Assembly (NCBI GenBank): GCA_036344135.1
Contig: JAYYUG010000050.1
Location: 1-48,972, forward strand
Origin: Pseudomonadota bacterium
GTDB lineage: Bacteria; Pseudomonadota; Alphaproteobacteria; MED-G09
Length of the DNA stretch: 48,972 nt
Direction: 5' to 3'
The notes beneath the pieces are model-generated. The model was not told where the DNA came from. It saw only the letters and a program-made list of their open reading frames with translations, and ran no database searches. Each line of letters begins with the position of its first letter. The first letter of the stretch is position 1. The position numbers were made by a program, and so were the translations under genes. Shown in pieces: positions 6,286-12,453 of the stretch.

Positions 6286-6382
6286 TAGCTTAGATATCAA
6301 TATGTTATTAATTAGTCCAATTTTTTTAGAAAATTGATAAGATTTATTATAAATCTGGTATTTTCTTTATAAAAAAACCAAT

Positions 6383-6407
6383 AAAATAGATAAATTTTAT
6401 CTATTTT
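6383..6407. repeat. perfect 12-1-12 inverted repeat in the antiporter/groES divergent intergenic region
   Basis: AAAATAGATAAA-T-TTTATCTATTTT read directly from the sequence. Confidence 0.8.
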
Positions 6408-8580: not shown

Positions 8581-9555
8581 TCACAAATCTATTTCAGTTT
8601 TTAACTTTTGCCATGCACTATCAATATTAAAATATATGAGATTAGGTTTATTAATTCTTATAGGACCATAGCCCTTCGATGTTAAATATTGAGAGCACGA
8701 AGACGATTTTTTTTCAGGGGTAATTAAGGAAACAACATCTCCCAAATTAGGTGTTCCGCCTGAAAAAATACCGTTAAACTTTCTAAATAAATCTAATTCC
8801 AGACTGTCATCATACGAAAGATACTCAAAAAGCATTTCAACCTTGTTAATAGCTTCCGATCTAGCTGAAATCGTCCTCAATAATTTCTCCACTGGATTGA
8901 GATTAAATTTATTCCAATCAAGACTTTTAGACGCGAAAATGCAGGCCTCACTTTTTAAAATTATCCCATCATTTAAAACCCTTAAATTATTAGCCTCCAA
9001 TGTTTTTCCACTTGATGTTATATCTACTATAAGTTCTGAAGTCCCAGCTGAAGGGGACCCTTCAGTCGCGCCAGTACTTTCGACAATCCTATAATTATTA
9101 ATACCCTTCTCTTTAAAAAAATTTCTTGTCAGCGTCTCAAATTTAGTAGCAACTCTTAAACGTCTTTCGTGAATGTGTAAAAAATCTCGAGTTACCTCTG
9201 ATAGATCCTGAGTATTGGAAACATCAATCCAAGAATTCGGAATTGCAACAACTACATCTGCTTTACTGAAGCCTAGTTTGGATAGAATGATTACTTCTTT
9301 AGAAATCTTACTATCCAGCTCAGAGATTAAATCCAATCCTGTAATACCTAATTGAACATTACCCGCTAGCAGTTCCATTGCTATCTCATTAGCAGAAAGA
9401 AATCTGATTTTTATATCTTCAAATTCCTTGATATGGCCTGTATAAGTTCTTTGATCTCCATCACGTATGATTGAGATCCCGGCAGAATTTAGGAATTCAT
9501 CCATATCCTCTTGAATCCGTCCTTTTGAAGGTAATGCGATTGTAATTGCTTTCAT
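8581..9555 (-). CDS. hisG: ATP phosphoribosyltransferase catalytic subunit (324-aa form)
   Basis: IALPSKGRI, LGITGLD, RVATKF and GATEGSP..GTSELIVDITSSGKTLEANNL; 4-nt overlap with hisZ. Confidence 0.95.
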   Translation of the reverse strand: MKAITIALPSKGRIQEDMDEFLNSAGISIIRDGDQRTYTGHIKEFEDIKIRFLSANEIAMELLAGNVQLGITGLDLISELDSKISKEVIILSKLGFSKADVVVAIPNSWIDVSNTQDLSEVTRDFLHIHERRLRVATKFETLTRNFFKEKGINNYRIVESTGATEGSPSAGTSELIVDITSSGKTLEANNLRVLNDGIILKSEACIFASKSLDWNKFNLNPVEKLLRTISARSEAINKVEMLFEYLSYDDSLELDLFRKFNGIFSGGTPNLGDVVSLITPEKKSSSCSQYLTSKGYGPIRINKPNLIYFNIDSAWQKLKTEIDL

Positions 9556-10907
9556 TTTAATGGCCTTAAAGATAATGCTTTTTCCAAATTTTCCATATTT
9601 AGTGCAGCTCCTACTGCGGGGATGTCAGTTTTTGAGCCCATTGACCTTATTAAATTATCATAACGACCACCTCCGCCAAGGTGAGTGGATTTCCCTTTTT
9701 GGGAATTAACAAAATCGAAAAGAAAACCTGTGTAATACTCAACCTCTCTTCCCTTTTCAGAAGAAAATTCAGATTTATCAAGATCCACTCCAAGCTCTTT
9801 AATTTGTTCTAACCTTTCTTTGGCTATATCTATCTGTCTTATGAGAGAGCTATCCAAATTTTTTGATATTGATCTTAAACGATCCAAAGCCTTAAAAGGT
9901 TTATCCGAAATAGACAGAAAATCCTTTATAAGATTAACTGTAGCATTTGAAAGCGGCTGTAAAGAGAACTCCTCACCTTTCTGCCTTAATCTCTCCATTA
10001 TTTCTTCGACGCTTCTTCCGACTGGTATTTCCTCAAAAGACATCCCAAGGCTCCTTCTGACTAAATCTGTGGCGGATTCCCTATCAAGTGAATAAACTCT
10101 ACGAGCAAGCTCATTATTGACAGATTTCTTAAAAGACAAATCCTCTAAAAGCACCCTGAAGTCGGATTCATTCCAATACTTTGCTTTTAACTTTTTTCTC
10201 CAAAGATCGGGAAGATCCATAACATCAAGAAAGATTGAGAATAGCGAAACATCCCCCATAAATGTTTGATAATTCTTAAGACCTTCATTTCGCAGCGTTG
10301 ATTCAACTTTATAAAAAATCTCTATCTCAGCAGCTAATTGGTCCTGTTTTCCTATATATTCTAAGCCTGCTTGGCTATATTCTGATGGTCCAGAACTATT
10401 TTCCAATCTGAGCTGAAAAACTTTACCAAAATAGGAATATAATTTCTTTTCCCCTGTAAACCCTTGGTCTAAATAATAAAGGCATGTTGGAATGGTTAAA
10501 TCAGGGCGAAGGCATAATCTTAGACCTTCTTGATCTGAAAAAATAAAAAGTCTATCAGCTACATTTTCACCCATTCTGTCTAGAACTTTTTCTGCTGAGA
10601 TCATTACTGGTGGATCTATTAAATCAAAACCGTCAGTTGAGAGATGTTTAACCATAGAGAGAGATGTTCCTGATAAATATTCTGTTGGATTAGTTTTAAT
10701 AATCTTTGGAACTGTCACTCCCCCAAAAACATCATTACTAATTTGTACTGATCTCTCTTCACATAACATTGCAATCTTAAGATGCAAACGAGCCGGAAAA
10801 CCTTTTTGCCTATAATTAGATACTGCGGAAGGATTAACGCCTAATAAATTGGCAAGTTTTCCTGTTCCACCGAGAGAATTAATTATGTCGTTAACATTTT
10901 TTTTCAT
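9552..10907 (-). CDS. hisZ: ATP phosphoribosyltransferase regulatory subunit with fused N-terminal Cro/YdaS-like HTH domain
   Basis: HisZ motifs LCLRPDLTIP, YFGKVF, QAGLE, EYYTGF and GGGRYDNL; position between hisS and hisG. About 65 extra N-terminal residues, IINSLGGTGKLANLLGVNPSAVSNYRQKGFP, have a Cro-like HTH pattern. Confidence 0.9.
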   Translation of the reverse strand: MKKNVNDIINSLGGTGKLANLLGVNPSAVSNYRQKGFPARLHLKIAMLCEERSVQISNDVFGGVTVPKIIKTNPTEYLSGTSLSMVKHLSTDGFDLIDPPVMISAEKVLDRMGENVADRLFIFSDQEGLRLCLRPDLTIPTCLYYLDQGFTGEKKLYSYFGKVFQLRLENSSGPSEYSQAGLEYIGKQDQLAAEIEIFYKVESTLRNEGLKNYQTFMGDVSLFSIFLDVMDLPDLWRKKLKAKYWNESDFRVLLEDLSFKKSVNNELARRVYSLDRESATDLVRRSLGMSFEEIPVGRSVEEIMERLRQKGEEFSLQPLSNATVNLIKDFLSISDKPFKALDRLRSISKNLDSSLIRQIDIAKERLEQIKELGVDLDKSEFSSEKGREVEYYTGFLFDFVNSQKGKSTHLGGGGRYDNLIRSMGSKTDIPAVGAALNMENLEKALSLRPLK

Positions 10908-10914
10908 ATTATAT

Positions 10915-10931
10915 ATTCATATAATATGAAT
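10915..10931. promoter_or_regulatory. 17-bp palindrome, candidate operator 1, upstream of HTH-hisZ
   Basis: ATTCATAT-A-ATATGAAT, a perfect 8-1-8 repeat with core TTCAT-N5-ATGAA, 7 nt upstream of the hisZ ATG. Confidence 0.55.
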
Positions 10932-10954
10932 TATATTAATAATCAAATAACAAT

Positions 10955-10969
10955 TTCATGAATTATGAA
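10955..10969. promoter_or_regulatory. candidate operator 2 overlapping the hisS stop codon
   Basis: TTCAT-GAATT-ATGAA has the same arms and spacing as the core at 10916-10930, offset by 39 bp. Confidence 0.5.
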
Positions 10970-12453
10970 CTTTTTTTTATTTTTCTTTGAATTTCTGCTA
11001 TTAATTGATCTTTGGAAATTGAAATTTGTGAACCTTTACCAGATCTCCACTCTTCATTATCGTCAATATTTTCCGATAACTCTTTACCCCTAGCAAGATC
11101 TTTAATGGTCACCGTATCACTTGCAATCTCATCTTCGCCTACTATTACAGCAAACTTTGCATTTCTTTTATCCGCGTAGCGAAGTTGAGCTTTCATACCG
11201 CCATCACCTGTATAACATTCTGCAATAATTTTTTCTTTCCTTAGTTGTGAGGCTATTTCGTAGAAAATAGATCTTTTCTCCTTATCCATGACCAATACAA
11301 CAACATCCAAACAGCTATCTTTAAGATTGTCTTCATTCAGTATCGATAAGGCACTTGCCAATCTGCTTACTCCAATTGAAATGCCAGAGGCAGGAACTGA
11401 TACACCTTTCAATCTCTCTATTAAATTATCGTATCTGCCTCCTCCTCCAACAGAACCATAATTATTTAATTTCTTATTATTGGAAAAAATTAAATCAGCT
11501 TCATAGATCGCGCCAGTATAATAGCTGAGACCTCGAACCACTGAAGGGTCAATGGCAATCTGATCTTCTTGATATCCAGAATTTTCTATTATTCCCGAGA
11601 TTGCATTTAATTCACTAACAGCATCAGAAAATTTTTGTGAACCACCAAATTTCACTTCAAGGTTTTCAAGCGCTTTTAAACGATTTAATTTTTTTGTATC
11701 TTTACCATTTTCAAGAAAAGATAGGATTGAAGAGATTTGATTTTTATCGAGACCGGCTCCTTCGGTATAATCACCAGACTCATCCTTCCTGCCCTTACCT
11801 AGCAACAATTCCACAGCGGCAAGACCCAATCGATCAAGTTTATCAACTGACCTCATGACTGACAGATATGTTTTCTCGAAATTATCTTCTGTTGGAATTT
11901 TATTTTGTTCCAAAAGCGCATCAAGAAGATTTCGACTATTAAGACGGACAAGATATTCACCTCTTTTTATACCTACACTTTCTAGCGTATCACAAAACAT
12001 CATGCACATTTCTGCGTCGGATAAAGAATTCTCACTGCCAACAGTATCGGCATCTATCTGTAGAAACTGTCTGAATCTTCCTGGTCCTGATTTTTCGTTT
12101 CTAAACACAAATCCGGATTGGTATCTCCTGTAGGGTTTTGGGAGACTATCAAAATTCTCTGAAACATATCGAGCTAAACCAGCAGTTAAATCGTAACGTA
12201 AAGATAACCAATTCCCATCATCATCTTCGAACGAAAAGACTCCTTCATTGGGCCTATCTTGATCGGGAAGAAAAGAACCAATCATCTCCGAATACTCTAT
12301 CACGCTGGTTTCTAATGGTTCAAAACCATACCCTTGGTAAACCTTCTCAATTGATTCGGTAAGTTTAGTAATCGCAAGGTAATCCTTACCTGAGGTATCC
12401 TCAAATCCTCTGGGTCTTTGAGCTTTCATCTTTTTCTTTTTTCCAGAAGTCAC
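10963..12453 (-). CDS. hisS: histidine--tRNA ligase
   Basis: PRGFED, LRYDLTA, FRNEK.GPGRFRQF.Q.DAD, VRGLSYYTG, GGGGRYD and anticodon-binding domain; GTG start. Confidence 0.97.
   Translation of the reverse strand: MTSGKKKKMKAQRPRGFEDTSGKDYLAITKLTESIEKVYQGYGFEPLETSVIEYSEMIGSFLPDQDRPNEGVFSFEDDDGNWLSLRYDLTAGLARYVSENFDSLPKPYRRYQSGFVFRNEKSGPGRFRQFLQIDADTVGSENSLSDAEMCMMFCDTLESVGIKRGEYLVRLNSRNLLDALLEQNKIPTEDNFEKTYLSVMRSVDKLDRLGLAAVELLLGKGRKDESGDYTEGAGLDKNQISSILSFLENGKDTKKLNRLKALENLEVKFGGSQKFSDAVSELNAISGIIENSGYQEDQIAIDPSVVRGLSYYTGAIYEADLIFSNNKKLNNYGSVGGGGRYDNLIERLKGVSVPASGISIGVSRLASALSILNEDNLKDSCLDVVVLVMDKEKRSIFYEIASQLRKEKIIAECYTGDGGMKAQLRYADKRNAKFAVIVGEDEIASDTVTIKDLARGKELSENIDDNEEWRSGKGSQISISKDQLIAEIQRKIKKSS

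Follow-up and report, generated by a model that had tools for sequence, protein, structure and literature searches.

What binds the two palindromes between hisS and hisZ, and what would that binding control? In the window, by which we mean the whole analysed stretch of 48,972 nucleotides (nearest named records: Rhodobiaceae MAGs at 92-93% identity), the hisZ product begins with a helix-turn-helix (HTH) domain. The original prediction held that this domain binds palindromes in front of its own gene and controls hisZ-hisG, independently of hisS, through an internal promoter or a roadblock.

The locus and the fused domain

The genes and predicted elements of the locus are as follows, with gene limits taken from the ORF map or from family matches.

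8581..9555, minus strand: hisG (ORF map; TIGR00070, 172.7 bits)
9552-10907, minus strand: hisZ, 451 residues (ORF map)
9552..10670, minus strand: HisZ body, ATP phosphoribosyltransferase regulatory subunit (NF008953, E 3.8e-87)
10677..10718, minus strand: low-confidence, probably flexible linker, residues 64-77 (pLDDT <50)
10755..10907, minus strand: N-terminal all-alpha Cro-like HTH, residues 1-51, recognition helix N-P-S-A-V-S-N-Y (NF046037, 36.1 bits)
10903..10907, minus strand: hisZ start codon plus AA, conserved in just 11/21 loci
10915..10931, no strand: predicted proximal operator, perfect 17-bp palindrome ATTCATATAATATGAAT, 21/21 loci
10918..10923, minus strand: predicted -10 TATATG, inside the proximal site and overlapping its palindrome, 21/21 loci
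10941..10946, minus strand: predicted -35 TTGATT of an internal hisZ-hisG promoter, TTG invariant in 21/21 loci
10954..10970, no strand: predicted distal operator, core at 10955-10969 (TTCATGAATTATGAA; TTCATAATTCATGAA on the coding strand), 21/21 loci
10963..12453, minus strand: hisS, histidine--tRNA ligase (TIGR00442, 359.5 bits, cut-off 286.75)

The body of the protein has the hallmarks of HisZ. It has a HisRS-like catalytic fold (fold comparison matched it to 3od1, 1z7m and 5m8h), domain searches found no anticodon-binding domain in it, its gene adjoins hisG, and hisS is a separate gene; its NF008953 score of 292.7 is below the cut-off of 384. The end of hisZ, including its stop codon, overlaps hisG by 4 nt, and the unit ends with hisG, on which groEL converges. 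HisZ retains the RPDLT, QxGxE and YYTG motifs, and D136, T138, Q179, E183, Y391 and Y392 are invariant in 40 of 40 sequences; these motifs and residues are assigned to the histidine-binding pocket of HisZ. The neighboring HisG has 324 residues, the Pfam HisG match stops at 228, and the C-terminal rest matches no Pfam or NCBIfam family. In the short form of ATP phosphoribosyltransferase, HisZ provides both the tetrameric core and the histidine pocket (PMC9734150).

Alone, the N-terminal domain scores 36.1 bits against NF046037 (the carph-isopro domain) and so misses the threshold of 38, while the G003 orthologue reaches 39. The predicted structure has four helices over residues 5-51 (mean pLDDT 81). 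Xfaso 1 Cro (3bd1) is the best solved match by sequence profile (E 1.8e-10) and ranks first by structure in Foldseek, though at an E value of 0.015; structural alignment to 3bd1 (VIA) gave Z 7.7 and an rmsd of 2.4 over 64 residues. The domain therefore shows the helical repressor-type HTH fold of the all-alpha Cro superfamily and, at the sequence level, palindromes over its own putative promoter in 21/21 loci. Unlike a true lambdoid Cro, it is an in-frame fusion downstream of the co-directional hisS and not a stand-alone gene divergent from cI. The SAVSNYR helix is invariant in all 18 aligned sequences. In this 90% complete genome no second member of the HTH family was found, and Trp_repressor (the TrpR/HisR family) matched neither the HisZ fusion nor anything else in the genome.

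Conservation of the two sites and a predicted internal promoter

A check of the letters confirmed the three strings named at the outset: the palindrome at 10915-10931, the second site at 10955-10969 and TTCAT at 10903-10907. The spacer is indeed 55 nt long (10908-10962), with 11% G+C. The claimed lack of a clear Shine-Dalgarno sequence also held up, as an SD-like 4-mer is absent from the last 20 nt in 21/21 loci. The TTCAT string had been read as a third half-site, and this reading had to be abandoned: it is the reverse complement of ATG plus AA, in other words the start codon, and not an operator. The loci begin with ATGAA (11/21), ATGAT (8) or ATGGA (2), so the string is not conserved, and ATGAA also opens 279 of the 1024 long ORFs in the genome.

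Taken singly, neither palindrome is commoner than chance predicts for so AT-rich a genome (1.34 Mb, 35% G+C): about 7 copies of TTCAT-N5-ATGAA are expected and 6 are present. The genome also holds 102 perfect palindromes with arms of at least 8 and a loop of 0-1. Elsewhere in the window, perfect A+T-rich palindromes with arms of 8, 12 and 13 lie at 6340-6407 (near the groES upstream region) and 46751-46777 (near the window end).

The sites rise above chance because they are conserved across loci. Our sample of the order comprised 25 genomes from three genera, 21 of which had the 5' part of hisZ. In the analysis as a whole, L025, L026, L117, L130 and L241 were left out, as their contigs stop short of the 5' part of the gene. 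All 21 encode the N-terminal domain, and all 21 loci carry two TTCA-N7-TGAA sites at a spacing of exactly 39 bp, with positions 2-5 invariant in all 84 half-sites. Shuffles gave 0.0 loci with two sites against the 21 observed, and of the 1009 upstream windows of this genome, just one contains a pair of sites when one mismatch or fewer is allowed. The bases between the two sites vary, and HisZ identity between genera is 53-59%. The proximal site ends 5-8 nt ahead of the ATG throughout the order and has the top genome-wide score of a matrix that was trained on these same sites. The predicted -35 is preceded by the distal site, whose left coding-strand arm is made by the last codons and stop of hisS (...TCA TAA in this genome); the same holds in genera g1 and g2. 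In genus g3 (8 loci) the distal site lies entirely outside hisS, and coding therefore does not explain its conservation.

The paired palindromes of the original prediction are real and conserved, but the consensus given for them needed correction: it is a 15-17 bp TTCATA-N3-TATGAA and not TTCAT-N5-ATGAA. This genome's distal site deviates from the corrected consensus at one position. Across the 25 genomes the exact consensus has 46 matches, 39 of them in the hisS-hisZ spacer; it has none in the 4 genomes without an HTH match, and a reversed control pattern has none in any of the 25.

The sole other invariant element of the spacer is a TTG; in 21/21 loci it belongs to a TTG(A/C) that has no second copy within 50 nt of the start. 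All 21 share the geometry TTG(A/C)-17 nt-TATATG across the sites, and TATATG stands 7-10 nt from the ATG, implying a leader of 0-4 nt. As a -10 element TATATG is weak evidence, with its final T missing and the hexamer part of the palindrome. Many alphaproteobacterial promoters lack the last T of the -10. A sigma-70 scan returned 3 sites against 1.9 +/- 1.3 in shuffles. Among the assembled RNA contigs of 4 runs, none spans the spacer. In a second order with the HisZ fusion, a TTG(A/C) at -33 to -36 is followed by TA 17-19 nt on ahead of 18 of the 50 starts; the same leaderless TTG(A/C)...TA...ATG geometry precedes 19 of 1003 ORFs of this genome. The second-order geometry thus lends independent support to a putative near-leaderless promoter. 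A literature search on leaderless or CarD promoters in alphaproteobacteria found no relevant paper. Of the two modes of control first proposed, we favor the internal promoter over the roadblock, given the conserved TTG(A/C) between the sites and the position of the predicted -10 within the proximal one.

Distribution of the motif and its covariation with the helix

The expectation that the motif would co-occur with the HTH fusion among relatives was largely borne out, in three orders and with two enzyme partners, and the motif is missing from the unfused orthologues examined. A class-wide search (401 genomes) located this domain on HisZ in a second order and on CoaBC in a third. We examined 51 of the 55 matching genomes of the second order (50 with the HTH) and 51 of the 78 of the third (49 with the HTH), searching 200 nt upstream for TTCAYA-N3-TRTGAA with one mismatch or fewer; the sixth position of this pattern was widened to Y after the first CoaBC loci were known. 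A site precedes 36/50 HisZ fusions of the second order (two sites in 11) and 24/49 CoaBC fusions of the third (two sites in 17), which leaves 14/50 and 25/49 fused loci, respectively, without a site at this stringency. The corresponding shuffles had a mean of 0.4, a maximum of 2 and no two-site loci.

Unfused genes gave the opposite result. The motif was absent upstream of unfused coaBC in ten HisZ-fusion genomes (0/10, at a matched A+T of 0.68) and upstream of unfused hisZ (0/9, five of these from CoaBC-fusion genomes, plus 0/5 more), the unfused hisZ controls being richer in G+C (A+T 0.52 for the first 9). In the CoaBC-fusion order, the window's protein found hisZ in 0/10 genomes at E 1e-12, and PF13393 detected it. 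In five CoaBC-fusion genomes, 7 of the 8 exact matches precede coaBC.

The CoaBC fusions (L113-L142, L193-L212 and L062; order of G159) have the Cro-like domain in all four families sampled. Their TTCACA-N3-TGTGAA sites, placed just past the preceding gene's stop codon, stand out clearly in f136 and f210 and have an irregular form in f201. Many fused loci have degenerate sites or none, above all in f211, where the sites are mostly absent.

Three genomes depart from the common arrangement. G423 (one genome, 75% complete) has neither the HTH nor the spacer nor the motif, and in G426 the sites are more than 200 nt upstream. In G425 both sites immediately follow the hisS stop, and HTH-hisZ-hisG is found in inverted orientation some 10 kb off, with no site in front. 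A recent inversion or an assembly error may account for this layout, or the sites may act in trans or at the hisS end. The same genome has another site pair, with a spacing of 28 bp, in front of an unrelated transporter-like gene (L282, at G425:C3:1303000-1318500, and L283).

On the HisZ tree the two orders with SAVSNY-type HisZ are sisters with moderate support (91/91, under the starred threshold). Kin are not independent, and the loci may therefore represent perhaps just three cellular events and a few phages. The HTH tree, built on 57 columns, is unresolved, and for this reason we claim no donor and no order of events. The profile used to locate the domains may include L058; no conclusion here depends on L058 or L175, the two loci of the unpublished G064.

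The scan for further target genes found no wider regulon in this order. Among the off-locus exact sites of the order (7/46), the six that were fetched sit at unrelated places, mostly within genes. One exact match, G000:C39:5478-5492, falls where an oxidoreductase gene ends; the gene ahead of amtB starts 125 nt further on, and only G001 shares this match. We rejected this amtB-linked site as a regulon member: it occurs in only two genomes of one genus, and at one mismatch or fewer it is absent from 8 amtB loci in five other genomes, 3 of which cover the matching stretch.

A change of helix is accompanied by a change of motif. In nine genomes of one genus, HisZ carries the helix GDLARKW and the same spacer holds the palindrome TGTCCYG-N4-CRGGACA, with no TTCATA-type site. 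TGTCCYG or CRGGACA half-sites are present in 9/9 of these loci, mostly at three positions per locus, and in 3/139 loci of other groups; this f156 motif was derived from the same nine genomes. In the GDLARKW HTH-HisZ loci (L233-L240 and L242; order of G323), a TTGC hexamer and TGTATT flank a right half-site, at a leaderless distance to the ATG.

Phage genes show a comparable pattern. Of ten cro-like phage genes examined, two (in MW202785.1 and JF412295.1) encode Asn at helix position 6, and both have TTCA-N7-TGAA upstream (shuffle P 0.0035 and 0.0005); the JF412295.1 gene diverges from one for a regulator. The other 8 encode Arg, Gln, Glu or Gly at this position and lack the motif upstream. A stand-alone Cro of G204 with the helix SAVSNW has two such sites. 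Phage matches that were duplicates, one match at a record start and one record were left out, and L271, from single-protein viral-contig scans (three proteins), was dropped as a false match. No nucleotide match to the HTH was found in phage records.

We also compared the site with a published Cro recognition code, which pairs helix position H1 with base +2, H3 with +5 and H6 with +6 (PMC6649833). In this protein Pro H1 with T+2 and Ala H3 with A+5 fit, at 2/2 applicable positions, and Asn H6 is outside the code. The groups with Gln H1 or Ser H3 do not follow the code; the site finder favors the consensus. The helix-motif covariation is the strongest evidence from sequence that the fused domain is likely the binder.

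Related domains also occur on other proteins. Cro-like domains are fused to ArgB-like amino-acid kinase family proteins (L213-L217) with TTG...17...TA promoters at leaderless distance, and L213 and L214 have a TTACT-N5-AGTAA palindrome. An aspartate carbamoyltransferase with such a domain (L220, L221) has TTGCG-N5-CGCAA palindromes upstream. HTH fusions occur, in one genome each, on prephenate dehydratase, a GlmU-like protein, NAD(P)H-hydrate epimerase/dehydratase and carboxyl transferase (L226, L228, L229 and L232), and in L228 and L229 short palindromes adjoin a TTG hexamer. A Cro/YdaS domain is joined to a TorD-like (nitrate reductase delta) chaperone in L222, L230 and L231. The commonest carriers of NF046037 are long proteins with the helix TTVQGW (most of L163-L192, L059 and L061), mostly with no upstream palindrome; one of them was confirmed as mitofilin/Mic60-like, which puts a DNA-binding fold on a protein that shapes membranes, and no operator is evident.

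A candidate mechanism, rival explanations and known systems

These data, all of them comparative, suggest that the two palindromes are likely the operators of the Cro-like domain fused to HisZ, and we consider it probable that the fusion represses a near-leaderless internal hisZ-hisG promoter. RNA polymerase would use TTGATT (10941-10946) and TATATG (10918-10923) and start 0-4 nt before the ATG. Each palindrome would be bound by two HTHs, joined through the HisZ oligomer or through weak Cro-type contacts of their own; a HisZ tetramer would bring four HTHs, sufficient for both palindromes. Protein bound at the proximal site would cover the -10 and block initiation, while the distal site would add cooperative binding and may damp read-through from hisS. 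The outcome would be a hisZ-hisG unit started independently of hisS, with negative feedback steadying the amount of ATP phosphoribosyltransferase.

One alternative is that the fused HTH binds the sites but acts mainly on the hisS transcript, either as a roadblock at the hisS stop that would set how much read-through reaches hisZ-hisG or, from the distal site, as an activator in the manner of lambda CI at PRM. The first site is at the hisS stop or within 10 nt of it in 21/21 loci and just past the upstream stop in many loci of the other two orders, the spacer has no terminator-like hairpin, and the G425 sites stay behind hisS. This alternative is nevertheless unlikely, since a TTG(A/C), 17 nt and a TA hexamer at leaderless distance under the proximal site are the layout of a repressed promoter, and phage relatives have the same layout.

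Another possibility is that a different, trans-acting regulator binds the sites, with the fused HTH either carried along as a passenger or directed at other DNA. Phage CI and Cro share operators (PMC6649833), and some extra sites exist (the 7/46 and the second G425 pair). On the other hand, the motif is nearly unique per genome, shifts from hisZ to coaBC together with the HTH and changes with the helix; the 90% complete genome yielded no second member of the HTH family and no TrpR/HisR gene, and six of the extra sites are at unrelated places. We regard such a regulator as improbable.

The operators might also be bound merely as a fixed dosage limiter or as the relic of a phage cassette, conveying no physiological signal and hardly altering hisG output. 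Similar domains do sit on ArgB, PyrB, prephenate dehydratase, GlmU, NnrE/D, TorD-like, carboxyl transferase and Mic60 proteins, the Mic60 fusions are mostly without a palindrome, and one lineage lost the domain. Against a relic, conservation of the helix and of the two sites exceeds that of the enzyme body, which implies continued selection, and the genomes are streamlined (0.9-1.6 Mb); we give this reading little credence. Finally, palindromes that are RNA hairpins (terminators or translational control) or chance products of A+T richness are very improbable: an all-A/U hairpin of 12 pairs can form across the proximal site and the start codon, and single sites are at chance level, but folding energy is no better than in shuffles (40/200 as good; z -0.87), the primary sequence is invariant rather than compensated, the spacing is fixed and two-site shuffles gave 0.0 against 21, so that the hairpin was rejected on folding energy and conservation.

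Under repression by the fused domain, a further question is whether a signal acts on it. Histidine or HisG binding to HisZ may tune DNA binding; HisZ holds a histidine pocket and the motifs are invariant, which makes histidine sensing plausible, and we propose it only tentatively. The flexible linker and the similar domains on unrelated partners would fit ligand-blind dosage control equally well. The unit resembles a cro gene that was taken from a phage along with its own promoter and operators and joined in frame to a housekeeping gene. A bolder version, which we hold doubtful, is that ATP phosphoribosyltransferase is a histidine-sensing transcription factor, with four captured Cro heads on two operators switched by histidine or HisG; that it would be one case of a recurrent capture of phage cro, promoter and operators included, onto oligomeric, feedback-regulated enzymes, yielding a pathway regulator in a single step, with HisZ having acquired two different heads and palindromes; and that Asn H6 with TTCA-N7-TGAA would extend the Cro code.

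The locus is a candidate for transcriptional control of the committed step of histidine synthesis in streamlined alphaproteobacteria in which no HisR was found, and HisZ, a known allosteric subunit, would likely take on a further role at DNA. All three components (protein, operator and promoter) have been predicted to the base. The matched sets of helix and motif (HisZ, CoaBC, free phage Cro and the second HisZ type) constitute a natural experiment on Cro-DNA recognition and on the origin of a regulator from phage parts.

Known regulators of histidine genes, HisR (TrpR family, PMC9413887) and HutC (PMC5343134), likewise act through palindromes but are stand-alone proteins of other folds. HisR was present in 11 alphaproteobacterial genomes of the HisR study, and the proteobacterial HisR motif is of a 20-bp TGTA...TACA type unrelated to TTCATA-N3-TATGAA (PMC9413887). 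The HisZ fusion has neither a TrpR domain nor a 20-bp TGTA...TACA or TTTA...TAAA motif. Known short-form HisZ shares the HisRS-like body, the missing anticodon domain and the position by hisG; the solved chains match the body only, and the extra 60-residue Cro domain and the putative operators set the present protein apart (PMC9734150). No published description of HTH fusions of HisZ or CoaBC, of enzymes fused to Cro-like domains, or of the carph-isopro domain was found in the literature covered, mostly open papers.

At the sequence level HisZ resembles a bifunctional enzyme-repressor, with a DNA-binding domain fused to a pathway protein and a predicted operator before its own gene. RbkR of Archaea is similar in being a biosynthetic protein with an N-terminal DNA-binding domain and palindromes before genes of its own pathway (PMC5397151). 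BirA, NadR and PutA are built on the same plan, and the DNA-binding domains of all four are of the winged-HTH or ribbon-helix-helix type. In contrast to these four, which have ligand control and wider regulons, the regulon of the HisZ fusion apparently consists of two genes; compared with RbkR-type proteins its head is Cro-like and its partner is a non-catalytic paralogue of an aminoacyl-tRNA synthetase.

The closest likeness in fold and recognition helix is to the all-alpha phage Cro proteins (Xfaso 1, 3bd1, with the helix QSAISNW; N15, 2hin/6on0; P22, 1rzs). These too have palindromes of about 17 bp over their gene's own promoter (PMC6649833). Unlike phage Cro, the HisZ fusion adds a 370-residue enzyme subunit and stands in a chromosomal operon, with no divergent cI and no lysis-lysogeny switch.
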